DNA of 64,000 bases from a virus. Positions 17,562 through 59,396 of this stretch are shown one piece after another. The translations under genes and the position numbers were made by a program. The stretch's first letter is position 1. Each line of letters begins with the position of its first letter. Where the stretch lies: IMG/VR virus record IMGVR_UViG_3300045988_180522; one strand, given 5' to 3'. The notes below the pieces were generated by a model. It ran no database searches and was not told where the DNA came from. It saw only the letters and a list, made by a program, of their open reading frames with translations.

Positions 17562-18062
17562 ACAGTAGTTCACCGAAAATTTCTCAGCTTCCGACTTTCT
17601 TTTAAAGTAGTGTCTTACCTTTTTCACCATATCTCTCTCCTCCTGGTCCCTGGGGGACTTCTTTCCGGATCTGTCCTTTGGTATCTCTCTGTACTTGTTC
17701 CAGAATTCCTCTGTAAAGCTTTCTTTCAGCTCACACAGATCATCGAAATCATAGATATGGGCTCTGTGTCCGGTCTTAGGATTTATAATTACATATCCCA
17801 GTCTCATAACTTCCTCTTTCCTCATATTCTGCCACGCTATAAGCCCTTTGAAACCAGATCTGTACCTGTTATCCAGTTCCTTTGCTCTTTCTTCAGAGAG
17901 ACCGAAGTTCTGCATAAGGGTAGTCCATCCTCCCAGATAATTCCACAGGAACTCATACTTCTTTGCTGTATCTCTAAGATCACTGTGATATTTCTTAATA
18001 TCTGCCGTGGACAGGCCTTCCAGTTCTTTGAATACCATCCGGCCAGTCAGTGAGTGCATCAT
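17526..18062 (-). CDS. polA: DNA polymerase A exon 2 ORF (motif B / O-helix region); Pol-homologous part predicted at 17562-18056
   Basis: HSLTGRMVFKELEGLSTADIKKYHSDLRDTAKKYEFLWNYLGG aligns with Pol I DIHRATAAEVFG...RRSAKAINFGLIYG. LSEERAKELDNRYRSGFKGLIAWQNMRKEEVMRLGYVIINPKTGHRAHIY aligns with [48 protein letters not shown]. The C-terminal 12 residues (YCRMYAACNRNIA) have no Pol counterpart and are taken as intron read-through. Confidence 0.7.
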   Translation of the reverse strand: MMHSLTGRMVFKELEGLSTADIKKYHSDLRDTAKKYEFLWNYLGGWTTLMQNFGLSEERAKELDNRYRSGFKGLIAWQNMRKEEVMRLGYVIINPKTGHRAHIYDFDDLCELKESFTEEFWNKYREIPKDRSGKKSPRDQEERDMVKKVRHYFKRKSEAEKFSVNYCRMYAACNRNIA

Positions 18063-19162
18063 ATTTTGTTATCCCAAAGGCTTTTTATCCTCTGGTTCTA
18101 TAAGTACTGGTAACCTCCTTATAGTTCGGCATATATTTTCACCCTCTTTAAGAGGGGCTGAGAACTCGTGGGCTGTTATATTTATTCAAGCCTATGCTCT
18201 ACAATACTTATAACCCTATTCGCAATGTTATAAGTTATCTCGGTGTTGAATAAGTTACGCTTTCTTGAAAGAAAAATAGTAGCATCTTTATACAAGAAAT
18301 CATATATACATTTCTTTACCTTATCAGAAGCATTTATAATTACTTTCCAATAATCGGTAGTTTTTCCTTGAATATGATATATTCTATATGAGAAATTTTT
18401 AAACCAACCCATTATCTGCTTCATAAAATGTTCTGAATTAAACACAAATTCAACAATACTACATCCCACATGGCCGTCTCCATCAAAGAAGCCTCTTATA
18501 AAATGTCTCCACAATTCCTCAGGTATAGAATCTTCAGGAATATAAAAACTTTTGTCTAAAGTTTTTAGTGGTCTGATATTATACTTAGCTCCTAATGTAT
18601 CGAACATATGTTCAGAAGTCCATTGTAATGTGTAACAAGGTTTTTTCTTTCTGTTATGAGTGTAATTTTTAACTAGTAATGAAGAATCAGGACATATATT
18701 ACTATGTAATGCTTCTATAGCTTCCTTGTCATCTATAGTATTATTAAATGCTATCCTTTTCGTATAGTGTAAATTCCTCTTTTCTAATCTACAACACCCA
18801 TCTGCTACTAAAAATCCAAGTAAGTAGGCTTTCAGTTCGGAATCTATATTATCAAAGAAATAGTCGTTAATTCTAAGTCCTCTTCTATCAAACTTAATAT
18901 TATAGTACTTAAAACAATCACTTACTCTTTGGGAAGAAATACCAAACCGACTTCCTATTTCTCTCTGATTTTTACCTTCTCTCATCATTTGACAGGCTAT
19001 TTCTATGTCAAATCTCTCTAAGCACTCTTTTTTAGTCATTTTATTTATCTATGGCAGTTATTAACTATGCAATAGTATAAATAAAAATCACCATTACCAT
19101 ATTTTTCACCGATTTTTCTCAGTTTTTTACTATATATTACTATATAGGGAGACATGCAATCT
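18057..19162 (-). mobile_element. Putative group I intron 1 in polA (carries LAGLIDADG HEG)
   Basis: This 1.1-kb insertion lies between polymerase motif A and motif B. Exon 1 has a stop and exon 2 sits in a different arrangement, so it is not an in-frame intein. A canonical U/G boundary choice (after GAU of ...EGSGD, before CAC of HSLTG) yields EGSGDHSLTGRMVF, matching Pol I EGKDIHRATAAEVF. The flanking non-ORF segments are 123 nt and 125 nt. Confidence 0.4.
18182..19039 (-). CDS. LAGLIDADG homing endonuclease (double motif) with N-terminal HTH, inside PolA intervening sequence 1
   Basis: Two LAGLIDADG-type motifs are present, YLLGFLVADGCC and FIRGFFDGDGHV. The N-terminal REIGSRFGISSQRVSDCF looks like a helix-turn-helix. 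Confidence 0.75.
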   Translation of the reverse strand: MTKKECLERFDIEIACQMMREGKNQREIGSRFGISSQRVSDCFKYYNIKFDRRGLRINDYFFDNIDSELKAYLLGFLVADGCCRLEKRNLHYTKRIAFNNTIDDKEAIEALHSNICPDSSLLVKNYTHNRKKKPCYTLQWTSEHMFDTLGAKYNIRPLKTLDKSFYIPEDSIPEELWRHFIRGFFDGDGHVGCSIVEFVFNSEHFMKQIMGWFKNFSYRIYHIQGKTTDYWKVIINASDKVKKCIYDFLYKDATIFLSRKRNLFNTEITYNIANRVISIVEHRLE

Positions 19163-20653
19163 ATCTCCACTTCCTTCCAGGAACTCACTGATCATAGCCT
19201 CATCCCTTGAAGCATCAGCCATAAGAACAGACTCTTCCCCTTTAACATCCTGTGATATCCACAGCCATCCCTCCCTTGGAATGAAGCATGATCTGGTTCT
19301 TTCATTCTTAGGAAGATTCAAAAGGTTCGGGTCTGTGGAACTGAATCTGGTGGTATCTGTTCCAAGCTGATGATAATTAGTATAGACCCTCCCGGTCCGG
19401 GGGTGGATATTTTCAAGGAATTTAGGCCCGTAAGTACTGACTACTTTCTCCAGTTTCTTGTATTTACAGTAGAGATCTACAATTTTATGGATATACCTCT
19501 GCGGCTTTATTTTCTTGGCATCACAGGTCTTTTTAAATCCTGTGGGACTATCCTTGTCTTCTACCATAACATCACATCCCAGCTCCTCCAGCAGAGGGAT
19601 TACCTGTCCTGAACTGGACCAGTTGATATCACATACATATCTTTCGGATTCATGAAACATATCGTACTGAGGATCCTCATAGATGTACGGATATTGCGAC
19701 ATTCTCTCATAGGCTATTTTCCTGTATTCCAGATTCCCGTCCTTAACTACCTTGTCCAGATCCGGCCTCCTCTTAAGTCTTTTCCTTTTTACAGGAACAG
19801 TCTTTCCTTTTACTTTCTTTGTCTTGTTGGAATCCTGGACATTGTTTGTAACCCATTCTTTCTGTTCCTCTTTGGACATGGAATAAGGATCGAAATAAAG
19901 GATTTTCCCCGGAGACGGATGTTCCAGTGAATATTCTATTACAGCCTTATTAAGAGCTTCTACAGACTCCTTAAGATCCCTCATATCATCTTCCGCCTTC
20001 TCCATCCATTTTTCCCGGCTTACAATCACTCCGCACCATTCCATATAAGACAGAGGGGCAATAGTCATTCCTTCTATAGCAGCAGCAGTATACAAATCCT
20101 GTCTTCTAAGCTCCTCTTCCTGCTTATCAGCTATCATAAGAAGATATTTCACATCATCACATGCATACACTATTACCTCAGGAGTAAGGCCTCTGGAAGC
20201 TATCTCCGTACGTACGGACTTATCCATACTGACTCCTGCATATCTGTGGGCCAGTCCCTGTAAACTTGCTGAAGGATAAGAAGGGTACCCTAGATATATC
20301 AGCTGTTCATTCAGGAACAGGTCATACATATTCATAATACATATTCTGTGATTATGCAGGTATTTGGCATCAAACTTACCATTAACTACTATAAACTGTA
20401 TGTCCTCAGATTCCAGCAACTCCTTATATAGTTGTATATCAATAGTATAAGTGTCAACAAGGATTTGTATATCAAAGTTTCCAAACTGTATACACCTGAT
20501 ATTCCCTGAATGACAGTCCAGTGAAGTAGTCTCAGTATCGAATCCTATTCTTTTCATACTGCGGAGGATATCCAGGGATTTCTCCACAGACATCCTCCCG
20601 TATTTATCAGAGGTTCCGAACAGGTCAGTATTATTACTTACTACATACCTCAT
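19130..20653 (-). CDS. polA: DNA polymerase A exon 1 ORF: 3'-5' exonuclease domain plus polymerase palm through motif A (507 aa ORF; splice donor predicted at 19163)
   Basis: GFDTETTSLD matches the Exo I motif. TTRFSSTDPNLLNLP aligns with TGRLSSSDPNLQNIP, and DVKGEESVLMADASRDEAMISEFLEGSGD aligns with [28 protein letters not shown] (motif A). The ORF terminates 3 residues after the DIH-equivalent. Confidence 0.8.
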   Translation of the reverse strand: MRYVVSNNTDLFGTSDKYGRMSVEKSLDILRSMKRIGFDTETTSLDCHSGNIRCIQFGNFDIQILVDTYTIDIQLYKELLESEDIQFIVVNGKFDAKYLHNHRICIMNMYDLFLNEQLIYLGYPSYPSASLQGLAHRYAGVSMDKSVRTEIASRGLTPEVIVYACDDVKYLLMIADKQEEELRRQDLYTAAAIEGMTIAPLSYMEWCGVIVSREKWMEKAEDDMRDLKESVEALNKAVIEYSLEHPSPGKILYFDPYSMSKEEQKEWVTNNVQDSNKTKKVKGKTVPVKRKRLKRRPDLDKVVKDGNLEYRKIAYERMSQYPYIYEDPQYDMFHESERYVCDINWSSSGQVIPLLEELGCDVMVEDKDSPTGFKKTCDAKKIKPQRYIHKIVDLYCKYKKLEKVVSTYGPKFLENIHPRTGRVYTNYHQLGTDTTRFSSTDPNLLNLPKNERTRSCFIPREGWLWISQDVKGEESVLMADASRDEAMISEFLEGSGDRLHVSLYSNI

Positions 20654-21251
20654 TTTTTTTTATTTTATGCCATACTATATACTTATCAAAATCTATCTTC
20701 CACTTGTGCTTGTCGAAGAATTCACTTCCGAGGATTCCTGTAACATTAAGGCCCTCCCTGTTGCTGAACTCTCTCAGTCCTTTCAGGTCTGAGACCAGAA
20801 AGTCCTCATTGAATTCCATATTCCTGATATTAAATCTGACCTGCATACCATAGGAATCCATAATAGCTCCGTTCCCCACCTGTATCTTATCTCCTTCGGC
20901 TATTGTCTTCCCTTTCAGCTTATCCTTTATAGTATACAGGAATTGAATATCAAGGCAGTTCTGGTGAGCTCCGGAATCCAGAAGGAACCTGCATTTCTTA
21001 CCATACAGGTGAACAATGATCATCGGAGTCTTTGTCCTTTCGAAATAATCCTCAAAAGAGAAAAACTCCCATTCTTTTGTATTCTCATTGTTCCTGTTCA
21101 GATCCCTTGAGATTCTCAGGGTAATAAGATATACCGGCCACAATGCCAGTAATAAAAATGCCAGACATACCATCCCCATATTACCTCCTTCCGGTGGAGC
21201 CGAATCCTCCTCTGGACTCATTTCCCAGATGTTGTACTTCCACAAACTCAA
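20634..21251 (-). CDS. Membrane-anchored retropepsin-like aspartic protease (205 aa)
   Basis: Has an N-terminal TM helix ([19 protein letters not shown]) followed by [13 protein letters not shown], which carries the D-S/T-G-A aspartyl protease signature. Confidence 0.5.
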
Positions 21252-36881: not shown

Positions 36882-37629
36882 TAAAAGTCCTCAGCCTTGA
36901 TGACTTGTCAGATATAGGCCACCAGAAACTACCAGAATTTTTAATGTCACCGTATCTGTCATTGTTGAACTCAGGAAAATAATTATTTATATCAGGACTA
37001 TTGAAAAGTATCCCCTTGCCTGTACAGGCTTTCGGACATGATACAATCCCGCGGTTTAAAGAATAACACATGCCCTGGGATAAGGTACAGCCCTCATAAA
37101 TCTTCTTCGAGTCTTTCAGAATATTATACCTCTCCTGTCTCGTAAGATAAGTATGACTCACCAAATCATTACGGCCCACAAGAGCATTCATTATTATACA
37201 GTACCTCTCACTCGTACATTCACAGGAAAATTCATCAGCAGAAATGTTAAGGTAAAGAAGAGAGGAAGGTGAATAATCAGTGTGAGAGGGAAGGAGAATA
37301 CCTGTCACCTCACACCATGGCTTTCTGATACTGTCCGTGAATACCTTCCATGTACCAGCTATATCAGAAACACTCAGTATTAAAAGAACTTCATGCATGC
37401 TTAAACATGACCCTATATGACTGATAAGACGGTTTATCCAATCACAAGGCATAAGAGAAGAATTATCACCTGATAAGTGATGCAGAAGATTGTGAATAAA
37501 TACATATTCCGCACTGTTATCCGGAATCAGAAAACCTCCTGATATGTCATCCGGAGATAACTTCCTCTCAGGAGATTTATACATGCAGGTACGAAGATGT
37601 TTGTAAAGATGTTTGAAATACTCTTTCAT
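36844..37629 (-). CDS. Paralog family B member (261 aa), first gene of the - strand block
   Basis: Carries C-terminal YFPEFNNDRYGDIKNSGSFWWPISDKSSRLRTFNDLLSLYKD. Confidence 0.6.
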   Translation of the reverse strand: MKEYFKHLYKHLRTCMYKSPERKLSPDDISGGFLIPDNSAEYVFIHNLLHHLSGDNSSLMPCDWINRLISHIGSCLSMHEVLLILSVSDIAGTWKVFTDSIRKPWCEVTGILLPSHTDYSPSSLLYLNISADEFSCECTSERYCIIMNALVGRNDLVSHTYLTRQERYNILKDSKKIYEGCTLSQGMCYSLNRGIVSCPKACTGKGILFNSPDINNYFPEFNNDRYGDIKNSGSFWWPISDKSSRLRTFNDLLSLYKDPEH

Positions 37630-38078
37630 GATAAATGAATTTGATAAGAGTTAACAGTTAAGGAAATGTAACCCCGAAATTAAAGAATTTTATATAGTAT
37701 ATAAGGAGAATTTTTAGCAAAGTAATGTACTCTGAAACCCTAAGAATGATAAGGTTTGGGGAAGATAAAGAAGGAAAAAGACAGGGTAAAAACATGTACT
37801 TATATCATAATAGAAGGTGATAAAGGTATGAAAAATAGTAATAGGCAGAAAGTTAGGGAAGGGGGAGGAGGTTGATAATCAGGCACTTAGCCCACTTTTC
37901 ACTTTCATAATAACAGCTTCTCGGTTGTTTGCCTCTTACATATTTTCAGCCACTTCTTCAATTATTAGTACATAAGAACTTCCCATTTGCTACTCTGAGA
38001 CTTCATAAGAACAGGTGTTTTATATCCTTAGCATTTCCTTCTCATTCTTTTAGTACTTGAGTGCTTAAATAAACGAGT

Positions 38079-38110
38079 AAAAAAAAGGCAGTGAGCCGGA
38101 GCTTACTGCC
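38079..38110 (-). terminator. Intrinsic terminator of the 38139-38525 gene
   Basis: On the - strand it reads GGCAGUAAGC-UCCG-GCUCACUGCC followed by U8. Confidence 0.7.
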
Positions 38111-38138
38111 TTGATACTGTGTGATTTGGTGTTTTTTT

Positions 38139-38525
38139 TTAGTCTACTGTTAAGGTCAGAATAGGAGAATTTCCTTCCCCTTGATCATACAATGTATAGA
38201 TCTCCTCTCCTTCCACCTCAAACAACCCAATCATGGGTCTTGCCGGGGCTTTTCCAGTTTCAATGATATGCTGTTGCACCTTATTGGCAACAGCCCCTGT
38301 CACATTTCCATCCTCAGTTCTAAAGGACAGGAATAAATTAGGCTGGCCTGTAATCTCATTAATCTTCTGAGGGTTCGGAACTACATCCAATCCACCCTTC
38401 ACTTCGAACTCCTCCAGGAACTCCTCCACAGTCCATGATTTTTTACATACCTCATTAAAGGTCCGTCCGTCACGTACATTCACATTGCTTTTACTGCCTT
38501 TTGATTTTCTTACTAAAGTTGCCAT
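38139..38525 (-). CDS. Hypothetical protein (128 aa), monocistronic unit in the intergenic region
   Basis: ORF with its own downstream terminator and an unusual G/C-tract plus A-tract upstream region. Confidence 0.5.
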   Translation of the reverse strand: MATLVRKSKGSKSNVNVRDGRTFNEVCKKSWTVEEFLEEFEVKGGLDVVPNPQKINEITGQPNLFLSFRTEDGNVTGAVANKVQQHIIETGKAPARPMIGLFEVEGEEIYTLYDQGEGNSPILTLTVD

Positions 38526-38607
38526 AATTTGATAGTTTTAAATTGTTGAACATCAGCACAATGAACTCCGGGAATTCCATACCCCCAGTACTACCCACCA
38601 TGCCATA

Positions 38608-38740
38608 GGAGGGGGAGGGTTAGGGTGGTTATCTCCCTCCCCTACAAATAAAAATTAAAAAAAAAATTATCACCCCCTCCCACAAATAAAAAAAATAAAT
38701 TTTTTATCTCCCCCAATAAAAAAAATAATAAAAAAAATTT
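38608..38740. repeat. G-rich block followed by three ~37-bp degenerate tandem repeats (TATC-T/A-CCC-C-TCCC-ACAAATAAAAA...A8-10)
   Basis: GGAGGGGGAGGGTTAGGGTGG sits at 38609-38629. The repeat units start at about 38630, 38668 and 38705, each pairing a C-tract with a long A-tract. Confidence 0.6.
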
Positions 38741-39092
38741 CTGTTCTCTACAGCTTTCAGCTTCTCAGGTTATCATAGTTTTGACTTGTAGTATGGTAAG
38801 GTTGTGAAGAAAAGTTTGTATATATAACAGTAAGGCAAGTCTAAGGTAGTGAAGTATTTTTGGTATATTATAATATTCGGGCAGACTGATTTGGTTTACC
38901 TGTATATAAAGGAAAGGTCCCGTCTGGAATGAGATCAGGCGGGACTGTGGGAAAATGTGTGATTTTTGAAGTGTCCTGTGGTTATTGTAGCAGGTCCTCA
39001 GGACATGTGGTGTATTTATGAGTACTGCAAATATAGGTATTTTATTTCAATCTGCAAATACTTTGATGTAAGGGGGCCGGGAGATGGGATAA

Positions 39093-39425
39093 TTATGAGA
39101 CAGATCCCACAACAAACCATCTGAGTGTATTTGCTGCGGAGCCGTATTTATAGAGGGTCAGTATATTGGTGGATATTGCTCTTACATATGCTACATATGC
39201 TCCTTCATTGACAGGGTGTTGCACGCATACTACGGCATTATATACTCTGGCTAGTGTTTTTGGCAGTGTAACTGATACCTGTTGTGATCCTGATGACACT
39301 GATATGGATCCCCATTCTAAGCATATACCATTCGGTAGTACTGTATATCCGGTTCCTGTAGCTAATTGCTGAAACTGGTTTTGTACCAGTTTAGGTACGT
39401 CACTTGATGTAATAAATTCTGCCAT
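39093..39425 (-). CDS. Small beta-rich protein beginning MAEFIT (110 aa), gp53-like tail-fibre-associated C-terminal-domain type; paralog of the poly-G-interrupted gene at 59062-59396
   Basis: MAEFITSS...TGTGYTVLPNGICLEWGSISV parallels MAEFITEA...TGNMTAVVSFPKTF of the 59062/59148 pair. Confidence 0.5.
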   Translation of the reverse strand: MAEFITSSDVPKLVQNQFQQLATGTGYTVLPNGICLEWGSISVSSGSQQVSVTLPKTLARVYNAVVCVQHPVNEGAYVAYVRAISTNILTLYKYGSAANTLRWFVVGSVS

Positions 39426-39725
39426 AGTTACATATTGTTTATCAGGGGTCTAAAATAAAAAAAAACTCTGCATTTCAAAGTTTCTCTATTAATTATTCCA
39501 CCTCCTGGCCCACCGAGCGAAGCGAGGTTATAGAAACAGGGAAGGCAGGTTTATATCAGAGAGTTATTACTGTTGGTTATACCAGGATGAAATATAGTTA
39601 TATACTGAATAATTCCGGAATTTTATCAGGAAAGTTCTGTTAGGATAGAAAAGATAAGAAGGAACAGCTATTAAAATATAATGTAAGAATGTGATTGTTA
39701 AGAGGTTAGCTATATAAAGTTTTTA

Positions 39726-39776
39726 GGTATATCATATAGCTTGCTGGGTATATCCTGATGAAATCTTGGTATATCC
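39726..39776. promoter_or_regulatory. Three direct repeats GGTATATC(C/A) phased at exactly 21 bp (iteron-like)
   Basis: Copies lie at 39726, 39747 and 39768. Confidence 0.5.
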
Positions 39777-40061
39777 TAAAAGAGTCTAGGATTTTACCAG
39801 GAGATTCTAATTTTCTTAGATAAAGTCTATGATTTCACTAGGAAATATACTTATCAATTTTTGCGTATGTGAAGGATCCGGAGATAATTACATTTTTGTA
39901 GCTATTAGATACATCGTGTAATTATTGGCTACAAAAATGTATCTACAGTTCATATATAAATTAGAATTCTCAGATAGATAAAATAGGATATTAATAATTA
40001 GATAAGAATAAGGAAAATGAGAATATATGTCTTTGTATATCAAGCTGTTATATTAAAATAT

Positions 40062-40098
40062 AACTCACTATATAGTGTTTTCAACTCACTATATAGTG
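40062..40098. promoter_or_regulatory. Two copies of AACTCACTATATAGTG, each containing the perfect 12-bp palindrome CACTATATAGTG, centre-to-centre 21 bp (operator-like)
   Basis: Copies lie at 40062-40077 and 40083-40098, about 130 bp upstream of the first + strand late-block gene. Confidence 0.55.
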
Positions 40099-40225
40099 AG
40101 GAAGGCTTCTCATATAATGGTATAGGCTCACTTTTTTATTGAGAATATAGAATTTTTTTTCTTAATATTTTTGTTAGGATTACTTTTAAAACATATCTTT
40201 GTGCTTAGTATAACTAATAAATACA

Positions 40226-40741
40226 GTGAGAATGGAGACAAGAAAACAACTTGGAAGAAGGATAACAAGAGAGATCATAGATAATAATACTGGTGAAGTA
40301 CTTGTATCGGAAGATCTTGTAGTCAAAGTAGGAGATATAGATAAGTTTATAATGTTTTTTCTGACTAATAATGATTATTTCTATCACCTTACAGGCACTC
40401 AGATTAAGGTACTTTCTGTATTATGGAAGGAATCCACTTATAAGCAGGGAGATGAAGGGAATATAATCCATAATAATAAAAATTTAAAGACTTCTATAAA
40501 GAGTAAAATGCCATCTATAACAGATGGTATGATAGATAATGTATTCAGTACTCTTAGTAGGCAAAATGTGTTGATAAAAACATGTAAGGGTGAGTATATG
40601 CTGAATCCTGAATATTTTTTCAAGGGGAGACTAAGTGATAGGTCCAAATGCATTAAAAGGGTTGTGGAATTTGTTATTAAGCCTGAATCTATGAAATCCG
40701 TATCTGATGAGGAGTGTTTAAATCTGAATAGTGATCTCTGA
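40226..40741 (+). CDS. Hypothetical protein (171 aa), first gene of the + block; candidate DNA-binding regulator by position
   Basis: ORF immediately downstream of the palindromic operator-like sites. Confidence 0.4.
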   Translation: MRMETRKQLGRRITREIIDNNTGEVLVSEDLVVKVGDIDKFIMFFLTNNDYFYHLTGTQIKVLSVLWKESTYKQGDEGNIIHNNKNLKTSIKSKMPSITDGMIDNVFSTLSRQNVLIKTCKGEYMLNPEYFFKGRLSDRSKCIKRVVEFVIKPESMKSVSDEECLNLNSDL

Positions 40742-40793: not shown

Positions 40794-42290
40794 ATGAAGG
40801 AAAGAGTAAACACAAAAGATGCAAGAGAGAAGCTTCTTGAAGGAGTAAGTATATTATCTGAGGCAGTATCACTGACCCTTGGTCCGTCAGGGAATACTGT
40901 GGTCATTACTGATGGGGACGGATCTCCTCATGTTACCAAGGATGGGGCTACTGTAGCACAGGCAGTGAGTGACCCTGATCCTGAGGTTAACTGTGGTATT
41001 GAGCTGGTAAGGCAGGCAGCCGTAAAGACAGCCAAGGAGGCAGGGGATGGTACTACCACTTCTACTGTACTGGCCAATGCTTTTATACATAATCTGAAGG
41101 ATTATGATCCTGTAGAAGCTTGTAAGGCGCTTGACTTCGTCACTTCGATGGTATCTGAGCTTATTTCACAGAAATCTGTAAAGATTGTAAGGAATATGGA
41201 TATGGTGGAAGGAGTGGCTACCATATCTGCAAACAATGATGGTACTATAGGCAGATATATCCGTGAAGCTTATGAGAAGACAGGGATGGGGGTGAATATT
41301 ATGCTTCTTGAAGGATTTGATGACAAGACTGTGGTATCTACCACAAAGGGGATAAAATTTGATAAGGGATATGAGTCTATAAGGTTTGTCAATAATCAGG
41401 ATAAGGGGGCCTTCGAGATATCAGACTGTGATGTGGTATTATTTGAGAATCCCCTGTGTGTATCTCAGGATATATTACAGGAGTACAGGCTTGATAAAGC
41501 TGTTCCTGTGCTCATCATAGGTCCTTCATTCTCAAGTGAGGTAATCAATTTCGGTATTTCTGCAAGAAGGTCAGGATATTCCGTATGTATGGTTCAGGCA
41601 GAGGGATGGGGGGATTCCCAGAGGGAGCATATCAGGGATATAGCAGCCCTTATATGTCCTGTATACAGTGAAGATATCAGCTATTACGGAAGGGTTGATA
41701 AGGTAATTGTCGATTCTATGTCTACTACCATCATAGGAGGCAAAGGCCATCCATCTTCTTATATTGCCAGCCTCCGGGCCCGGGCCGGAAACAGTGATGT
41801 GGAGGACCATAAGAACAGTCTTCTGGAAAGGGCATCTATACTGGAGAATGGTACTTGTTCCATTACTGTGGGAGCTAAGACTGAAGCAGAGCTGAAAGAG
41901 AAAATGGACAGGTATGATGATGCTGTGAGAGCTGTAAAATCAGCTGTAGAGGAAGGAGTATTGCCTGGAGGAGGAATTGCCCTGAGCAGAATTTCCGATG
42001 AGATCATGGAAAAAACGGAGACAGCAGGGGCCAGGAGGGATGCATTATTATGCTTGCATTCTGTAAGGGACAAGCTGTGTGAGATGTGTGGCATATCATG
42101 GTCATATGATGTAAATCAGGATTTCTTCACAGGATATGATTTCAGGAGAGGGAAAGAGGTGAACTGTCTGGAGGAAGGTATTCTGGATCCTGCAAAGGTA
42201 GAGAGGGTAGCTGTAGAGAATGCTGCCTCCGTAGCCAAGACTATTTTATCGACTAAATGTATAATCAATACCAGGGAGGACAGGTTATGA
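40794..42290 (+). CDS. groL: GroEL-family chaperonin (Cpn60), 498 aa
   Basis: LTLGPSGNTVVI aligns with VTLGPKGRNVVL, VTKDGATVAQAV with ITKDGVSVAREI, and AGDGTTTSTVLA with AGDGTTTATVLA. C-terminal LPGGGIALSR and GILDPAKVERVAVENAASVAKTILSTKC also match GroEL. It lacks the GGM tail. Confidence 0.85.
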   Translation: MKERVNTKDAREKLLEGVSILSEAVSLTLGPSGNTVVITDGDGSPHVTKDGATVAQAVSDPDPEVNCGIELVRQAAVKTAKEAGDGTTTSTVLANAFIHNLKDYDPVEACKALDFVTSMVSELISQKSVKIVRNMDMVEGVATISANNDGTIGRYIREAYEKTGMGVNIMLLEGFDDKTVVSTTKGIKFDKGYESIRFVNNQDKGAFEISDCDVVLFENPLCVSQDILQEYRLDKAVPVLIIGPSFSSEVINFGISARRSGYSVCMVQAEGWGDSQREHIRDIAALICPVYSEDISYYGRVDKVIVDSMSTTIIGGKGHPSSYIASLRARAGNSDVEDHKNSLLERASILENGTCSITVGAKTEAELKEKMDRYDDAVRAVKSAVEEGVLPGGGIALSRISDEIMEKTETAGARRDALLCLHSVRDKLCEMCGISWSYDVNQDFFTGYDFRRGKEVNCLEEGILDPAKVERVAVENAASVAKTILSTKCIINTREDRL

Positions 42291-42912: not shown

Positions 42913-42985
42913 GGCCTGGTAACTCAATGCATAGAGTGACTCCGTCCTAAGGAGTAAGTTGCGGGTTGGAGTCCCGCCCGGGCCA
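42913..42985 (+). tRNA. tRNA-Arg (anticodon CCU), 73 nt
   Basis: By hand folding, the acceptor stem GGCCTGG pairs with CCGGGCC, the D stem ACTC with GAGT, and the anticodon stem ACTCC with GGAGT around loop GTCCTAA (U33, CCT, A37). The T stem GCGGG pairs with CCCGC around loop TTGGAGT, and the discriminator is A. The D-loop lacks GG and the T-loop has G56, consistent with a covarying C19-G56 pair. Confidence 0.7.
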
Positions 42986-43003
42986 CTGGTAAAAGTAAGA
43001 TAT

Positions 43004-49073: not shown

Positions 49074-51440
49074 ATGTATCAACTTAAGAATTTGCCGCCA
49101 CAGAAGCTCCCTTATACAAAGAAGACAAAGGAGTGGAGGAAGAAACATTTGGATTGGGCTGACAGGAAGTCATTTTTCAATGACAATTTTGTCCGCAAGT
49201 CCGTGATACATAAAATGATCAATTATGATCTTCTGAGAGGTAATCTGCATATGGGAGACCTTCAGATGATTATAAATCCTGATAATGTAGAGGCTGCCTA
49301 TATACCTGAAAAGATACAGCATTATCCTATCATGAATTCAAAGCTTGAGGTATTAAGAGGGGAGGAATATAAGAGAAGATTTGATTTCAGGGTAGTGGTT
49401 ACAGATCCTAACTCTATCAGTTTCAGGGAAGATCAGAAGAAAGAAGAGCTTTTCAGTGTCCTTCAGAGCATAATAGCCGATACCTCTGACAATGAGCAGC
49501 AGTTCAATGAAAGGGTCCAGGAGGCCAGTGATTATTATATGCATGAGTGGCAGGACCTCAGGGAAATAAGAGCCAATGCATTACTCAGGCATTATTATAA
49601 GGAGCTGGAATGTAGGGATAAATTCAATGACGGGATCATGGATGCCATGGCTGTCGGAGAAGAAATATATCAGTGTGAGATAGTATCAGGCGAGCCTGTG
49701 ATAAACAGGCTTAATCCTTTAAAGGTAAGGATATTCAGGAATGGATATTCAAACAGGGTAGAGGATGCTGATATGATAGTACTGGAAGACTTCTGGTCTC
49801 CGGGACGTATAATTGATTATTTTTATGATTCGCTGACAGAGGAAGATATAAACTATATAGAGAAAATCCCGTTCTCACCTGTTGAAGGAGACGATGATAT
49901 ACAGGGGATAGATGAAAGGGCAGGATTTATGTTCCTTCCTGATGAAGGAGGAGAAGCCTTCGGACAGGGAATAGTGCCTGACTCATCGGTATTCTTCGGG
50001 GAAATACCTGGCAGAAGTTCCATGTATTATGATCTGGCAGGTAATATAAGAGTACTCAGGGTATACTGGAAATCCAGAAGAAAGGTGAAAATGGTGACAT
50101 CATTCGATGAGAATGGTGATAAGGTGGTTACCTTCCAGAATGAAGATTATGTCATTTCGGAAGAACTGGGGGAGACAGAGAAGATCTTTTGGATAAACCA
50201 GGCTTGGGGAGGCACCAAGATAGGGAAAAATATATATGTGAATATGGGTCCTCTTCCTATACAGTTTTTTCGTATGTCAAATCCTTCAAGATGTCATTTC
50301 GGAATCATAGGGACTCTGTATAACCTGAATGATCATTCCCCGTTCTCTATGGTGGATATTATGAAGCCGTTCAACTACTTATATGATGCAGTATATGACA
50401 GGCTTGTAAAAGCTATATCATCATACTGGGGTACATTGTACGATCTTGACATGGCTCAGGTCCCGGAGGACTGGGATATAGATAAATGGCTGTATTTTGC
50501 CAAAGTATCCCATATAGCTGTAAAAAATAGCTTCAATGAAGGCTCGAAGGGGGCTGCTACAGGTAAGATCGCTGGTAACTACGCCAATAACAGCAGGGGT
50601 ATGATGTCTGCCGGGGATGGTAATTACATACAGCAACTGATCAATATACTGGAATATATCCCTGTCAAGATGTCTGAACTGATAGGTATATCAAGACAGA
50701 GGGAAGGTCAGATTGATAACAGGGAAACCGTAGGAGGAGTGGAAAGGTCTACCTTACAGTCGTCACATATTACAGAATGGCTGTTTATAAAGCATAACAG
50801 CCTGAAAAGGAGAGTACTGGAATGCCTTCTTGAACTGGCAAAAGCATGTGCCAGAGGGAGGACACTGAAATTCCCTTATCTGTTATCAGATAATTCACTG
50901 GCCATGTGTGAAATAGACGGGGATGAATTTGCTGAATCAGACTACGGACTGGTAGTGGATACTGACTCTGAAGTACTGGCTCAGAAGCTTGATGCTTTGG
51001 CTGCCAATGCTTTACAGCATAACAGGCTTGATTTTTCAACCATCATGAAAATATACACCTCACAGTCATTGGCTGATACCCAGAGGATGATAGAAAAGAA
51101 TGAGAAGGAGGTAAGAGACAGGGAGATGCAGGCACAGAGGGAGGCTAATGAGGTAAGGATGTCAGAGATAGAGAATGAATCAAGGATGCGTGAGGCAGAA
51201 CTTGCCCAGAAGCAGGAAGCTAACATACGTGATAATGAGACTAAGATACTTATTGCGGGAATGTCTTCCAATGAACAGGCCTCTCCCGGCCCAGGATCTG
51301 ATGAATTGCTGGAGAAAATAAGGCAGTTCAATGAAAAGATGAAGCTGGACAGAGAGAAACTGGCTCTTGACAAGACTAAGCATGATGATGATATAGCATT
51401 GAGAAAGAAGGAATTATCCTATAAAAATACTAAAAAATGA
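49074..51440 (+). CDS. Portal protein candidate (788 aa) with C-terminal coiled coil
   Basis: Size and position after terL support the call. The C-terminal Glu/Arg-rich heptads (EVRDREMQAQREANEVRMSEIENESRMREAELAQKQ) form a coiled coil. Confidence 0.5.
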   Translation: MYQLKNLPPQKLPYTKKTKEWRKKHLDWADRKSFFNDNFVRKSVIHKMINYDLLRGNLHMGDLQMIINPDNVEAAYIPEKIQHYPIMNSKLEVLRGEEYKRRFDFRVVVTDPNSISFREDQKKEELFSVLQSIIADTSDNEQQFNERVQEASDYYMHEWQDLREIRANALLRHYYKELECRDKFNDGIMDAMAVGEEIYQCEIVSGEPVINRLNPLKVRIFRNGYSNRVEDADMIVLEDFWSPGRIIDYFYDSLTEEDINYIEKIPFSPVEGDDDIQGIDERAGFMFLPDEGGEAFGQGIVPDSSVFFGEIPGRSSMYYDLAGNIRVLRVYWKSRRKVKMVTSFDENGDKVVTFQNEDYVISEELGETEKIFWINQAWGGTKIGKNIYVNMGPLPIQFFRMSNPSRCHFGIIGTLYNLNDHSPFSMVDIMKPFNYLYDAVYDRLVKAISSYWGTLYDLDMAQVPEDWDIDKWLYFAKVSHIAVKNSFNEGSKGAATGKIAGNYANNSRGMMSAGDGNYIQQLINILEYIPVKMSELIGISRQREGQIDNRETVGGVERSTLQSSHITEWLFIKHNSLKRRVLECLLELAKACARGRTLKFPYLLSDNSLAMCEIDGDEFAESDYGLVVDTDSEVLAQKLDALAANALQHNRLDFSTIMKIYTSQSLADTQRMIEKNEKEVRDREMQAQREANEVRMSEIENESRMREAELAQKQEANIRDNETKILIAGMSSNEQASPGPGSDELLEKIRQFNEKMKLDREKLALDKTKHDDDIALRKKELSYKNTKK

Positions 51441-54125: not shown

Positions 54126-57100
54126 ATGGATAAAATCTTACAGCAAATAGGAACGTTTCTAGGAAGAAAATTCAGTAAAATATATACTATTTTCAACGAT
54201 AAGTATAATGAACTGGATAATAAAAAGGTAGACAAGGAGGAAGGTAAGGAGCTGATGCCTTCACCGGAAGGAGCTTCTGATACTGTATTTCTGTCTGAAA
54301 CAGGATGGAGAGAAGTGAACACAGATAAGATCAGGACTCATGTCATAAGCATTTCTATTCCTTTTGATTCTGCATGGGATTTTAATGGCGCACAGGAGAT
54401 TACCCTGGAAGAAGGTGATTATGACAGGGATGAGGCCGATTCATTTATATATGACTATTTCAGGTATAATAATCCAAATGTAGTAATAAGGAATACTAAT
54501 ACTACTACACAGTCTGCTCAAAAAGGTTATCATACTGTATGGAAGGTAGCCCTGGATACCATTGCAGAAGGAAGAGCTTTAAGACTTTATCTGGATATTC
54601 CTGAGAATCTGAGTTTTACCATGGCTCCTGAAAGAGATAGTGCCAGATTTACAAGATATTGTATTCTCCTCTATCTGTCTCAGGATGAAGGGAATCAGAC
54701 CTATACACTCAATAGTATAGGAATACTTCCGAATGGTACTGACAGTTTCATCCCAAGGAAATACCTGGATGGTAAGTTAAGTGACATTACAAGTTCTTAT
54801 CTGCCATTATCCGGAGGATTGATGACTGGTAATATAGCTTTCCCTGATGGTAAGGGACTTGGATCTGCTGTCGGCCAGTCTGATTTACTGGTAAGGAGCG
54901 GGAATATTGTAAAGCTTGGATCTGCCGGATTTTCTGCCAGATTATATGCTGAAAATCCTGTTGTCCGTGAGGGCCAGGAGGGGATGTTTACAATGTATGA
55001 CACTTCGAATCTGGATATAGATAAGCCGTTTGTAACTGATCTGTGGGCTGTATATGATGCAGAAGGTAAAAATACCCAGAGTATAGCTGTAGATTTGTAT
55101 AATCCTGTTGCTAAGTCAGCGACTAAGGTATACAGGGAATTACTGCCTGTCACTGATACGAATATGGGTCTTATAACTCCCTACTATAAGTCAACTTTAG
55201 ATGGATTAATAGGTCCATCCGGGAATAAATTAAATATTTATGGCACACCTTCTTCTGCGTGGATGATAGGCTCTGTAGGGCCTGTATTGAAGAATTCAGG
55301 AGGTATATTTGAGCTGCGTAATAATATAGATAATGCCTATACTGACCTTATCCTCAATAATATTACAATTAAGGGTAATGTTACCCAGGAAGGGTCATCA
55401 TTCATAACAGAAGCTGAGACTGTAGAAGTATCCGATAATATTCTTCTTTTAAACAGAGGGGAGGTAGGATCCGGGGTTACAAAGGGAATTTCAGGTATAC
55501 AGGTAGATCGGGGAGCCCTTACTGATTATCAGTTTATATTCGACGAATCTGATGACAGGTTCAAGGTAGGGGTAGAAGGGGATTTATGGCCTGTGATGTT
55601 AAGGAACAATGAATCTGATCTTAGTGATAAGTTCTTCCTGTCATGGGATGCTTCCCTTAAAAGAGCAGTAACTACGAATGTTGTTCCTGAAACAGGGCTT
55701 CTCTTTTCAGGTGGAGTAAGTAATCACCCTGAATATGATATTACTGTAGCAGCAACTGGTAGTGGTAGTATTGGATTCGGTGCTTTACAAGCGAACACCC
55801 CATGGTCATGTACAATAGGATATAATTTAAATACCAGAGATGTGCCAAGTGCTGATATTCTGGACTTTGCCACATCATTGAATGCTTACAGGTATGATAA
55901 GCCTTCCGTATTAAACATGATATATTTTGATACCTATCTTAGCCCTAACAGTATAGAGCCATACGGAACCAGTAGTATATCACTGACTACAGGATCCGGT
56001 GATGATCTTATACATACTAAAGGAGGTCAGAATTATATCATCTATGATTCCAGTAATCTGAATATAGAAGAACTAGCTACTAAGGACGACATATCAGGCT
56101 TAGGTACTGTATACTATCCTTATAGTGGCAGAGGTCATATGACTATAGGAGCAGATGGGAGACCTATATTAGCTAATAACCAAGGAATACTATTTAATAC
56201 AACATCTGATGCTGTTGAAGGAATATACGTAACTACTAATGGCCATTTAATTATTGGAGGTTCTAAATTTAATAATATTCCTGTAGATATTTATAATGAC
56301 CTGAGTATAGCCAGAATTCTTGACAGAGCTACTAATTTTTCTCTTCTTGTATTCAGTAACGGAGGTACTGAGGATTCACAGTACACTCATATAGGAGCTG
56401 AACACGGAACTACGAGAATAAGATCAGGATTATTTAATTTAGTACATGATAGGGGAGGTACGTTATATACAGTATTTGACGGATATAATTTTTCCAGGAA
56501 TCTTGATACTATAAGCATAAATAGTTCATTTAACCATCTTCCAATGATGGCAGCTCAAATAAAAAGTGGTGATGCTACTACTGATAGAGGATATCCTATA
56601 CAAGAGGCAGGATCTCTCGTTGTTATTCCGGGAACATATCATGGATCTAGTCAAATTTATGGTACATATAGTACTAATAGGTGGTTTGTGAGAGGAGGAT
56701 CTAATTCTTTGGAAGATCCTACAGCACATACATCTTGGAAAGAATTAGCTACTACGAATCATTTGAGTAATTATTTGCCTCTGACTGGTGGTACTATGAC
56801 TGGGAATATAATGTTCCCTACTTCGGAAGTTTATATAGTACAGACTCTTGCATCAACATCAAATTATGGTGCTCCTATTAGATGGATGGTAGGTAATGAA
56901 ACAAGGGCTATGATAGGATATCATACTACAGGAGGAGATGGCACTGCTGGAGCTATAATAATAACTCCTACAAATCCAGGGAGTTCTCCTTGGGAGAATG
57001 GTAATGGGTTATTTTTAGACAGAAATAAGATTTACTTTAATGGACAGGAATTAGCTAAAGTATCTCAAATTCCTTCTACATCTGATTTTTTACCATTATC

Positions 57101-58280
57101 TGGAGGGACTCTTACTGGAGAGTTAACTGTTCCAAGAATTAACACAGGTCATATAGAAAGTATAGATGGTAATGCTCTACTAACCTACCGTCAAGCTGGA
57201 ATTACTGGAGTAACTAATGAACAAGTAGGAGTTGGTACCATAGCAAATCAAATGATACTGCGATCAAATAATACTAATTTAATGCACTACAAAAATGGTA
57301 CACAATATACTATTTTAGATACGTCTAACATAGCATCATTGACTATCCAATTCAACGGATCTACTAATACTACCTATGCTCCTAATGCAGCTAAAACTGT
57401 AAATATCACTCCTGCTGCTATTGGGGCAGCTGCTTCCAGTCATACACATACAACACTTCAAGGGACTTATACAGGTTCTGGAGGGTCTCAGCCACCAAGT
57501 TATGTTACAGCAGGAACACTAAGAGCTAATATGATGTATTATAATATGTCCGGAAGTCCTTATTGTGACTGGTTAATGATGGATACATATACCGGATCTG
57601 ATGTGCCTTATGTCACTATGATAGGGGTGACAAAGACTGCAACTCCAAGAGCTTTTATTGCTTCTGGTCCTAAAGGTAATGCAAGTACCAGTTCCTGGGT
57701 AAGAAAAGAACTTGCCACTGTAGATGCTATTCCGACAACTATGGCGTGGGGTAGTATTACAGGAAAACCATCATTTGCTACCGTAGCTACATCCGGAAGT
57801 TATAATGATTTAAGTAACAGGCCTTCTATTCCAAGTGCTGAGACAGCTGCTACTATTATGTCAAAAATTAACTCCCAGTCTGAAATTACTTTCAGTAAAC
57901 ACGTAGTATGTTCAGCCGGAGCAGGTACTTCTTCTACATCTGATATCAGATTTAAGAACAATATCACCCCCCTGGCCCCTGTATTGTCACATGTTCTTGG
58001 ATCACCCGGATTCTTCTATACATGGAAGGATGAGGATGAAGTACTGATAGGGACATCGGCTCAGTATTGGGAAGGCAGGATTACAGAGCTTGTAAGGGAG
58101 ATAAATGATGAGGATAAAACCAAAACATTCTCCTATGAGAGATACACTGTTATATTACAGGAAGCTCTTAAAGAGGAACATATGCTAAGAGAAACAGAGA
58201 AGGAAGAGTATAGAAAAGAGATTTGTTCTCTGAGAGAGGAATTGGAAGATTTGAAAAGACTAATACAGAAACTGTTATGA
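54126..58280 (+). CDS. Large tail fibre or spike (1384 aa) with C-terminal peptidase-S74-type intramolecular chaperone domain
   Basis: The C-terminal SSTSDIRFKNNITPL...GSPGFFYTWKDE carries the S-D-x-R-x-K auto-proteolytic motif of endosialidase-type chaperone domains and is followed by a coiled coil. Confidence 0.65.
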   Translation: MDKILQQIGTFLGRKFSKIYTIFNDKYNELDNKKVDKEEGKELMPSPEGASDTVFLSETGWREVNTDKIRTHVISISIPFDSAWDFNGAQEITLEEGDYDRDEADSFIYDYFRYNNPNVVIRNTNTTTQSAQKGYHTVWKVALDTIAEGRALRLYLDIPENLSFTMAPERDSARFTRYCILLYLSQDEGNQTYTLNSIGILPNGTDSFIPRKYLDGKLSDITSSYLPLSGGLMTGNIAFPDGKGLGSAVGQSDLLVRSGNIVKLGSAGFSARLYAENPVVREGQEGMFTMYDTSNLDIDKPFVTDLWAVYDAEGKNTQSIAVDLYNPVAKSATKVYRELLPVTDTNMGLITPYYKSTLDGLIGPSGNKLNIYGTPSSAWMIGSVGPVLKNSGGIFELRNNIDNAYTDLILNNITIKGNVTQEGSSFITEAETVEVSDNILLLNRGEVGSGVTKGISGIQVDRGALTDYQFIFDESDDRFKVGVEGDLWPVMLRNNESDLSDKFFLSWDASLKRAVTTNVVPETGLLFSGGVSNHPEYDITVAATGSGSIGFGALQANTPWSCTIGYNLNTRDVPSADILDFATSLNAYRYDKPSVLNMIYFDTYLSPNSIEPYGTSSISLTTGSGDDLIHTKGGQNYIIYDSSNLNIEELATKDDISGLGTVYYPYSGRGHMTIGADGRPILANNQGILFNTTSDAVEGIYVTTNGHLIIGGSKFNNIPVDIYNDLSIARILDRATNFSLLVFSNGGTEDSQYTHIGAEHGTTRIRSGLFNLVHDRGGTLYTVFDGYNFSRNLDTISINSSFNHLPMMAAQIKSGDATTDRGYPIQEAGSLVVIPGTYHGSSQIYGTYSTNRWFVRGGSNSLEDPTAHTSWKELATTNHLSNYLPLTGGTMTGNIMFPTSEVYIVQTLASTSNYGAPIRWMVGNETRAMIGYHTTGGDGTAGAIIITPTNPGSSPWENGNGLFLDRNKIYFNGQELAKVSQIPSTSDFLPLSGGTLTGELTVPRINTGHIESIDGNALLTYRQAGITGVTNEQVGVGTIANQMILRSNNTNLMHYKNGTQYTILDTSNIASLTIQFNGSTNTTYAPNAAKTVNITPAAIGAAASSHTHTTLQGTYTGSGGSQPPSYVTAGTLRANMMYYNMSGSPYCDWLMMDTYTGSDVPYVTMIGVTKTATPRAFIASGPKGNASTSSWVRKELATVDAIPTTMAWGSITGKPSFATVATSGSYNDLSNRPSIPSAETAATIMSKINSQSEITFSKHVVCSAGAGTSSTSDIRFKNNITPLAPVLSHVLGSPGFFYTWKDEDEVLIGTSAQYWEGRITELVREINDEDKTKTFSYERYTVILQEALKEEHMLRETEKEEYRKEICSLREELEDLKRLIQKLL

Positions 58281-59062
58281 GCAAGGAATTTCTGACTGTC
58301 AGGGATGCTTCCAATAAACTGGGACTTCCGGGCAGTACAAACACATATACCTTTATAACAAAAGGAGCAGCTATTACTGCCGGAGCGGATCCTGATCTTC
58401 TCACCGGATACGGATATAATGATTTTCCTGTGGATGATGATATTCAGATAGGATCGACTCTCCTTCTCAGGTATGATGGTCCTACAAATACTTTTACTCA
58501 GGGAGCTATAGGTGCCACAAAAAAAGGTACTATTACAGCAGGGAGTCTGGGAGCAACATTTGCTGTGAATGCAGGATATAACATAGATAAAATTACTACT
58601 GATGATATTAGTAAGACTTGGTCTACTTTCAGACTGTTTTTTCGAGGTCAGATAACAGGCCCTTCTGATATCAGCTTGCCTAATTTTTATCCGATGTGCT
58701 CTATCTTAGCATATTATGGTGGTACTGACAGAACTTGTGGTATAAATGTCATTAGAAAGAGTGACGGAACATGGTGGGTTACATTCAGAGTAATAAACGA
58801 TTCAACTGCTACCGCATACCTGACTATAGACCTGTTTCAACTTCCTAGTGCCACACAAGGATTTACTGCTATAGTAGATTTAAAAAGTGATGGTAATATA
58901 TATCATAATTCATCCTATTCAGATAATAGTGCAGGAGTAGTATATAATACAAACGGATCTATAACAAATATGAAAAATCAGCAAGTTATATTAGGAGGAT
59001 GGAGTTTTTCCAATCCGGCGATGATAGTAAATGAGTTTAAAATAGAAACATTTGATAAGTAA
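58277..59062 (+). CDS. Tail fibre-associated protein (261 aa; start moved to the ATG overlapping the upstream stop)
   Basis: Forms an ATGA overlap at 58277-58280. The sequence is beta-rich and Thr/Gly-rich. Confidence 0.5.
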   Translation: MSKEFLTVRDASNKLGLPGSTNTYTFITKGAAITAGADPDLLTGYGYNDFPVDDDIQIGSTLLLRYDGPTNTFTQGAIGATKKGTITAGSLGATFAVNAGYNIDKITTDDISKTWSTFRLFFRGQITGPSDISLPNFYPMCSILAYYGGTDRTCGINVIRKSDGTWWVTFRVINDSTATAYLTIDLFQLPSATQGFTAIVDLKSDGNIYHNSSYSDNSAGVVYNTNGSITNMKNQQVILGGWSFSNPAMIVNEFKIETFDK

Positions 59063-59396
59063 TGGCAGAATTTATTACAGAAGCTAATTTAAATAGTTTG
59101 TTTACCAAAACAGCTCCTACAAAAGCAGATACTATTCAGGGGGGGGGATGTTGATACAGTCAGGACTTAGTAACTTTAATACTGGTAATATGACTGCAGT
59201 AGTATCTTTTCCGAAAACATTTCCTACCAAGTGCTGTATGGTACAACTTACTCCTAACAACTATTACGGCCACTGGGCCAAAGGAGATGTTCTAACTATC
59301 AAATCTTTCTCAAATTCCTCACTTACAGTGGAATTAGTAGGAACTGCTCCGGTAAGTAACAGAAATGAGTTTTTCTGGCTGGCAATAGGATATTAA
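59062..59396 (+). pseudogene. MAEFIT-family gp53-like gene interrupted by a G9 homopolymer (two ORFs, 59062-59154 and 59148-59396)
   Basis: MAEFITEANLNSLFTKTAPTKADTIQGGGC* ends 2 codons after a G9 run (59139-59147). The downstream ORF MLIQSGLSNFNTGNMTAVVSFPKTF... is in the -1 frame. G10 or G7 would fuse them into a ~112-aa protein colinear with the intact paralog at 39093-39425. Confidence 0.55.

Follow-up and report, generated by a model that had tools for sequence, protein, structure and literature searches.

Why should a conserved phage gene, placed directly behind the tail fibre genes, be split into two reading frames by an uninterrupted run of nine guanines (G9)? The question is raised by a locus close to the end of a stretch of 64,000 nucleotides (nt) from IMG/VR virus record IMGVR_UViG_3300045988_180522 (the window hereafter means this whole stretch, and positions are counted from its first letter). 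The two parts of the gene appear there as separate open reading frames (ORFs):

59062-59154, plus strand: ORF1, which makes up the 5' part; 30 codons for a 30-amino-acid (aa) peptide, MAEFITEANLNSLFTKTAPTKADTIQGGGC followed by the stop, with the N-terminal motif MAEFIT.
59148-59396, plus strand: ORF2, which makes up the 3' part; 82 codons, read in the -1 frame, with an entire beta domain similar to Gp53-like_C and to the foot of pyocin fibres.

The answer favoured by our analysis is that this is probably a hypermutable poly-G contingency locus, which switches a fibre-tip protein ON and OFF and was captured in the window in its OFF state. It is favoured because the tract is hypermutable, all three frames are present among the relatives, the turnover of tract length is quick and the product is conserved.

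The homopolymer occupies positions 59139-59147 on the plus strand and starts at the third base of codon 26 in the 111-codon fused frame. ORF1 reads through the tract and stops two codons past it (GGA TGT TGA), and the distance of 86 nt between the starts of the two ORFs (59148-59062) places ORF2 in the -1 (+2) frame. An initial annotation of this DNA, made from the letters alone, had described the G9 run and the -1 relation of the 82-codon to the 30-codon ORF in the same way and had concluded that G10 or G7 would fuse them. The coordinates agree with the first statement and the frame arithmetic with the second, G13 being a further fusing length, so the G9 of the window needs either one nucleotide more or two nucleotides fewer. 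The fused product would be 111 aa long with the junction peptide ADTIQGGGMLIQSGLSNFNTGNMTAVVSFPK, the tract itself coding, in GGG codons, for the glycine linker that connects the foot domain to the region of the N-terminal motif. Both OFF frames terminate quickly, at a stop within 2 or 7 codons and, as read from the assembled sequence, the allele of the window is OFF and gives the 30-aa peptide only.

The G9 tract is the sole G or C run of at least seven bases in the window; by chance, base composition would give 0.02 runs of G9 or longer. The protein sequence does not force such a homopolymer, because only 21% of the Gly codons in the long ORFs of the window are GGG and other Gly linkers are written in mixed codons. 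Apart from the focal linker, those ORFs contain just two Gly-Gly-Gly tripeptides, written GGA GGA GGC and GGA GGA GGA, and a Gly6 linker in a neighbouring 361-aa gene of larger relatives reads GGTGGAGGTGGAGGTGGA in two genomes, i.e. GGT GGA three times over (in another genome the same linker is written as a G9 run). At the focal linker, a run of at least five Gs was found at every locus seen. A run of nine As at 20653-20661, tried as a candidate for a second split gene, was discarded since it looks like an ordinary A-rich gene start with overlapping minus-strand ORFs; it is positioned at the junction (20634-20661, minus strand) between the start of a DNA polymerase ORF and an aspartyl-protease-like ORF (20634-21251) that overlaps it.

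To gather the related loci, viral and metagenome collections were scanned by exact pattern and with protein guidance, and the encoding contigs were looked up, which resulted in approximately 40 records (about 30 distinct), mostly from human gut assemblies; individual loci are given below with L numbers and individual proteins with P numbers. A G run was present at this site in every locus examined, with a length of 5, 7, 8, 9, 10, 11 or 12. Protein P0079 implies a run of about G14, judging from its number of Gly residues, and in a diverged clade the focal linker is written as G9 followed by an A. All three frames are represented: out of 24 non-redundant loci, six were in frame, 11 needed one base fewer and seven, including the window, needed one base more. 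In Dulem virus 41, the nearest deposited genome (lemur faeces, 92.9 kb, circular, about 98% identical in this region), both ORFs are present and annotated as separate coding sequences, with a G12 tract between them. The fraction of ON alleles was about 25% among the DNA-sampled loci and about 60% by a rough manual tally of contigs per protein cluster; both samples are biased, in different ways, and neither was relied upon.

The turnover of the tract is quick on the scale of the surrounding sequence. Records with identical flanks (some of which represent the same contig in two collections) had the same tract length, as did two loci with 0.19% flank divergence, and the lengths already differed at 0.7–0.8% divergence of the 2–3 kb flanks. 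By this comparison, the tract changes faster than its flanks.

A length difference in a homopolymer may also have a trivial origin, as the initial annotation had cautioned: the true genome would carry an in-frame G10 and the split would be an artefact of sequencing or assembly. Long G runs are indeed error-prone on short-read platforms, the G9 of the window is one base short of G10, and the closest in-frame relative, L006 (G10), is 1.9% divergent in its flanks. The spread from G5 to G12 across the relatives, however, far exceeds a deviation of plus or minus one, and independent assemblies agree with each other where they represent one strain or nearly identical strains. An ORF2 protein of 100% identity was found on contigs from seven samples with a tract of either G9 or G11. 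One of these contigs, ENA ERZ28601313 scaffold_21 (sample SAMEA104142448), shows no difference from the window over 3249 bp and has G9 as well, which is weak independent support since it may be the window's own source; of the others, from different samples, three had G9 and three G11. Finally, no other homopolymer-disrupted genes were present in the window. Given the length spread and the identical calls in independent assemblies, an error is very unlikely to account for the split, although this particular assembly may deviate by plus or minus one base.

Despite the changing frame, the coding capacity on both sides of the tract is maintained. The ratio of nonsynonymous to synonymous divergence (dN/dS) for ORF2 was 0.08–0.14 at a synonymous divergence (dS) of 0.6–0.8 between the two main clades, including pairs in which both alleles are OFF (the window versus L009, L010, L012 and L014), and for the ORF1 part it was about 0.1–0.3, on few sites. 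These ratios indicate that both halves of the gene are under purifying selection. In the public collection, most of the protein clusters correspond to the fused form of 110–113 aa with GG, GGG or GGGG at the junction, and the in-frame homologues share the N-terminal start of ORF1; the remaining clusters are either ORF2-only calls of 81–82 aa or calls starting in another frame. Translation of ORF2 as a gene of its own from the ATG at 59148 was considered as well and ruled out: the codon after the tract is ATG in the clade of the window only and is replaced by ATA or TTG elsewhere, in many relatives, and ORF2 is therefore not an independent gene.

The same data bear on the possibility of a decaying pseudogene, broken by a frameshift in a mutation-prone run. 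The allele of the window is out of frame, and extra damage was seen in a few relatives. In L017, a collapsed G5 allele is accompanied by a second frameshift, a 1-nt deletion in ORF2, as expected once the tract has become too short to switch back. In L016, a TGA at position ~6126 (ORF2 codon 43) replaces the Trp codon TGG present in all others, and there is a frameshift near the 3' end of ORF2; this could mean either that a deleted or chimeric allele is decaying or that TGA is read as Trp in this phage. Neutral evolution should bring dN/dS near to 1, which was not observed even between the OFF alleles at a dS of about 0.7. Moreover, ORF2 retains its full 82 codons in nearly all OFF loci, and its protein is 100% identical across many samples, making a pseudogene an extremely improbable explanation.

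The strong purifying selection on ORF2, when about two thirds of the assembled genomes are out of frame, might instead point to recoding as the main route of expression, in which either polymerase stutter or a -1 ribosomal slip on G GGG GGG would join the two parts at any tract length. With nine or more identical bases in a row, such a run fits the slippery-site pattern X XXY YYZ perfectly, and a polymerase could plausibly slip on it as well (the heptamer G GGG GGG lies within the run, and any long homopolymer contains one trivially), and the 0-frame stop follows merely two codons past the tract. Among near-identical genomes, however, the in-frame state occurs alongside each of the two OFF frames; with a frame relation that is not conserved, no single direction of the shift can be programmed. 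Many natural alleles are plainly in frame, no stimulatory fold was detected by pseudoknot-free folding of positions 59130-59260 (minimum free energy -28.7 kcal/mol versus a shuffle mean of -27.9, z = -0.24), and rapid switching at the DNA level already accounts for the purifying selection on OFF alleles. Programmed translational frameshifting as a fixed mechanism, listed as an option in the initial annotation, is not supported, given the varying frame relation and the unremarkable downstream structure, and recoding in general is unlikely to be the main expression route. Some transcriptional or ribosomal slippage may still operate on top of the DNA-level switching and add leaky expression from OFF alleles.

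The nature of the protein was approached by profile and structure comparison. The fused product matched the Pfam family PF21882 (Gp53-like_C) at an E value of 5.7e-13 and 49.6 bits (cut-off 24.9) with its residues 28-111, spanning positions 4-84 of the 84 in the profile; therefore, ORF2 carries the whole domain and the G run is located just ahead of it. The matches of the fused product in PHROG were to the ends of tail fibre proteins. An AlphaFold2 model, for which 87 homologues were aligned with P0001 as the first sequence (it shares 95% identity with the fused product), had a mean predicted local distance difference test score (pLDDT) of 76.7 and consisted of a short helix at the N-terminus and a beta sandwich after it; an earlier run with 29 close homologues had a pLDDT of 50, which increased to 77 when the family of the paralogue described below was added. 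The top solved structures matched by the model in Foldseek were the C-terminal foot of the R2/R1 pyocin fibres (6CT8 with an E value of 4e-6; 6CL6, 6CXB and 6CL5) and AP22 gp53 (4MTM), with a probability of 1.00 and template modelling (TM) scores of 0.62–0.71, at a sequence identity of only 16–19%. The family profile, run against the sequences of solved structures, matched only antibodies, by chance, and a protein search with a two-family profile (focal plus paralogue) produced no further distant relatives. Because of its fold matches to a fibre foot, the modelled protein looks like a distal fibre tip that is made as a separate small unit. Of the two roles suggested in the initial annotation, receptor binding is consistent with the predicted foot fold, whereas fibre capping finds no support in it.

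A second gene of the same architecture is present in the window at a distance from the fibre genes:

39093-39425, minus strand: intact paralogue of 110 aa with a MAEFIT start and the same domain order, without the homopolymer, located in the AT-rich region between two gene blocks.

Its colinearity with the fused product, the identical start and a gp53-like domain common to both had been proposed initially, and all three hold. BLASTP aligned the two proteins with 29% identity over 58 aa (E 0.002), while the focal and the paralogue families align end to end, with M1, E3, F4, T6, G35, G94, W106 and G110 being invariant. The paralogue scored 22.7 bits against PF21882, i.e. below the cut-off, and two clusters of its family have a precomputed PF21882 hit. 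It is retained in Dulem virus 41 with 95.5% identity, and its family includes 39 clusters of uniform length.

Under the contingency-locus reading, ORF1 and ORF2 would together be one gene for a tail-fibre-tip protein of about 111 aa, composed of an M-A-(K/N)-E-F-I-T segment with a short helix, a Gly2-5 linker and the foot domain. Slipped-strand mispairing at the poly-G tract during phage DNA replication would add or remove Gs, with the family-A DNA polymerase, which the phage encodes itself, being presumably the slipping enzyme. The resulting change in length would decide whether the foot domain is read in the frame of the start codon, so that the gene in the clade of the window would be ON at G7, G10 or G13 and OFF at other lengths. 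A phage population would then exist as a standing mix of ON and OFF genomes, whose virions either carry or lack an accessory receptor-binding tip, a form of bet-hedging on adsorption or host range. Slipped-strand phase variation had already been suspected from the window alone, and it gains support from the occurrence of G5-G12 in all frames, the quick change relative to the flanks and the purifying selection.

Several points weigh against this reading. A high-frequency reversible switching within one population is inferred from differences between assemblies, and the Illumina consensus at G9-G12 may be off by one, which would inflate the apparent variation. With only about 25% of the DNA-sampled loci being ON, most of the assembled genomes would be without the protein unless slippage rescues it. 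The virion location and the receptor binding are deduced from domain and fold similarity only, using a model of moderate confidence, and both the phage and its host are uncultured.

The genes directly upstream of the split gene are as follows:

54126-58280, plus strand: tail fibre of 1384 aa with a C-terminal Peptidase_S74 (intramolecular chaperone) domain.
58277-59062, plus strand: gene for a 261-aa protein with the N-terminal motif MSKEFLT, kin to MAEFIT, directly preceding the split gene.

The location of the split gene right after the fibre genes, as indicated initially, is evident from this arrangement. The complete order is portal, two fibre-like proteins, the 1384-aa fibre, the 261-aa gene and the split gene, with a stop/start overlap at the last two junctions (the 1384-aa fibre with the 261-aa gene and the latter with ORF1); the stop of the 261-aa gene overlaps the ATG of ORF1 in TAATG at 59060-59064. 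Both the split gene and the 261-aa gene open with the motif M-[AS]-x-E-F-[IL]-T. The 261-aa protein had no Pfam or PHROG match and represents a variable cassette, with a 351-aa form in its place in Dulem virus 41 and others; it is probably a fibre or tip protein too, from one operon with the split gene. The fibres preceding this cassette in the relatives end in the same C-terminal coiled coil as the 1384-aa fibre.

Judging by its portal protein (49074-51440), which is 56–57% identical to those of the Bacteroides phages DAC15/DAC17, of Kehishuvirus and of the PhiCrAssBcn isolates, the window belongs to a crAss-like phage, and Bacteroidales are its presumed hosts from this similarity to Bacteroides phages. 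A search for the gene in 185,579 bacterial and archaeal genomes gave no match, thus providing neither a prophage copy nor a clue to the host.

Several other features of the window were recorded. The family-A DNA polymerase looks split (17526-20653, minus strand): the exonuclease and the first part of the polymerase domain are located at 19130-20653 and the later part of the domain at 17526-18062, both on the minus strand, with a LAGLIDADG homing-endonuclease-like ORF at 18182-19039 (minus strand) between them, which could represent an intron, an intein or insertion of a free-standing endonuclease. The region around the paralogue, 37600-40300, is an AT-rich, gene-poor stretch between the leftward and the rightward gene blocks. 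It contains three tandem repeats of 33–38 nt (TTATCTCCCTCCCCTACAAATAAAAA...) at 38629-38732, a perfect 16-nt repeat at 40062-40100 that is also palindromic (CTCACTATATAGTGAG) and the majority of the A/T runs of 8–10 nt in the window, and it could hold an origin or regulatory sites. A GroEL-like chaperonin gene (40794-42290) is 33–36% identical to homologues from Flavobacterium, Vibrio and Bacteroides phages, a tRNA-Arg(CCT) gene is located at 42913-42986 (plus strand) and a radical SAM protein gene at 12040-12981 (minus strand).

In the larger relatives, the focal gene is a member of a longer series. Contigs of 145–165 kb (L009-L016 and L048) have a fibre of about 795 aa followed by an array of four to six small genes, each starting with MAEF/YL/IT or MSKD/EFLT; the array includes the focal gene and was recorded ~400–2100 nt downstream of it. 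Its composition suggests that the tips are interchangeable and form a family sharing one N-terminal peptide. A second G run of variable length was found in a 110-aa MAEFLT gene of the larger relatives (L026 at 6025, L028 at 1964, L031 at 1987 and L011 at 957), with lengths of G6-G11 (G6, G7, G8 and G11) and in both ON and OFF states, the intact form being 110–111 aa and the truncated form 93–94 aa long. A third G run (G7-G10) precedes, or is located at the start of, a gene for 351–364 aa in the larger relatives.

The G runs also coincide with the joints of chimeric genes. In L048/P0083 (L048 1501-1842) and L016/P0079 (L016 ~5940-6240), the focal foot domain is preceded by the N-terminus of either the 361-aa gene or a short MENMIYK ORF, the joint being exactly at a G run and about 1.2 kb in between being deleted, and in P0101 the N-terminus of the MSKEFLT gene is joined to the C-terminal 30 residues of the focal protein. 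Since the chimeras are joined at G runs, these runs also act as recombination joints between the N-terminal and the tip modules. The N-terminal motif that these genes share may serve them all as a docking peptide.

A broader and more speculative reading, for which we have only tentative confidence, is that crAss-like phages have poly-G switches placed exactly at the joints between a docking peptide (M-A/S-x-E-F-I/L-T) and interchangeable foot domains, combining combinatorial switching with module shuffling. If it were correct, the two or three tracts of the 145–165 kb relatives would switch independently, resulting in a reversible combinatorial receptor specificity, and such tip switching would counter the phase-variable capsules of the Bacteroides hosts. 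The same G runs would in addition shuffle N- and C-terminal modules.

Few viruses of the human gut are as abundant as the crAss-like phages, which persist in the presence of Bacteroides hosts whose capsules are continually switched. A reversible mutational switch acting on the receptor-binding tip would, if true, represent a phage-side counterpart to the phase variation of the host. There is also a practical side to this, as the gene is split by gene callers in about half of the public assemblies: a homopolymer-aware annotation would recover it, and the state of the tract is worth recording whenever crAss-like phages are compared or used.

Among the known systems, the frameshift in the lambda G/GT-type tail assembly chaperones is similar in having two overlapping ORFs of the tail region joined by a slippery run. 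There, however, both the offset and the slippery site are conserved and both products are needed, while the offset at the present locus varies, many alleles are in frame, and the product is a fibre-tip domain and not a chaperone. A likeness in apparent purpose, i.e. quick or reversible variation of the distal receptor-binding part of the tail, exists with the established phage tropism switches, such as the invertible fibre segments Mu G and P1 C and the diversity-generating retroelement of Bordetella phage BPP-1. Those are operated by site-specific inversion or reverse-transcriptase mutagenesis rather than by replication slippage, and neither an invertase nor a reverse transcriptase was seen near the split-gene locus. 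With the foot of the R-type pyocins (6CL6, 6CT8, 6CL5, 6CXB) and AP22 gp53 (4MTM), the predicted protein has in common the domain family, the fold and the order of a helix followed by a beta-sandwich foot. The difference from the R-type pyocin fibre is that the domain is here part of a free-standing unit of 111 aa and not the end of a 700-aa fibre.

In respect to the mechanism, no report of poly-G or homopolymer switching in crAss-like phages was found in the literature searched, and to our knowledge Bacteroidales, the presumed hosts, are not known for poly-G phase variation themselves. Contingency loci have been described in T2/T4 and other phages, with the repeats defined as runs of at least six bases and found in all gene classes (Gomez, Barrick and Waters, 2025, preprint, PMC12633550). 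These are likewise simple-sequence repeats, which cause reversible frameshifts through polymerase slippage and for which a bet-hedging role is proposed, but the repeats were under-represented (0.77x) in the tail-fibre genes (PMC12633550). What sets the present locus apart is one G run of much greater length (up to 12-14) in a fibre-tip gene, where it is conserved even between diverged phages.

The system most similar in mechanism is that of the Campylobacter phages (Fletchervirus), in which, according to Sorensen et al. (2021, Cell Rep 35:109214) as cited in PMC10579305 and PMC10877375, hypermutable poly-G tracts make the receptor-binding proteins phase variable. As far as these citing accounts describe it, the two have in common a long poly-G tract in a tail-fibre or receptor-binding gene, a shift of the frame with the tract length and a mixed population. 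The proteins are unrelated: a tblastn search with the fused protein against 50,697 phage records gave no match in a Campylobacter phage but only in Dulem virus 41 and, weakly, in a Pseudomonas phage fibre. The resemblance is, therefore, mechanistic and not ancestral. In contrast to the Campylobacter phages, the phage analysed here is crAss-like and known from sequence alone, and its tract, unusually long and conserved, is located exactly where the N-terminal motif common to these genes meets a foot domain that can be swapped, and it doubles there as a recombination joint. Thus, a poly-G switch at this locus would operate by a mechanism already known from Campylobacter phages, and what differs is the phage group, the unrelated protein on which it acts and the position of the tract at a module joint.

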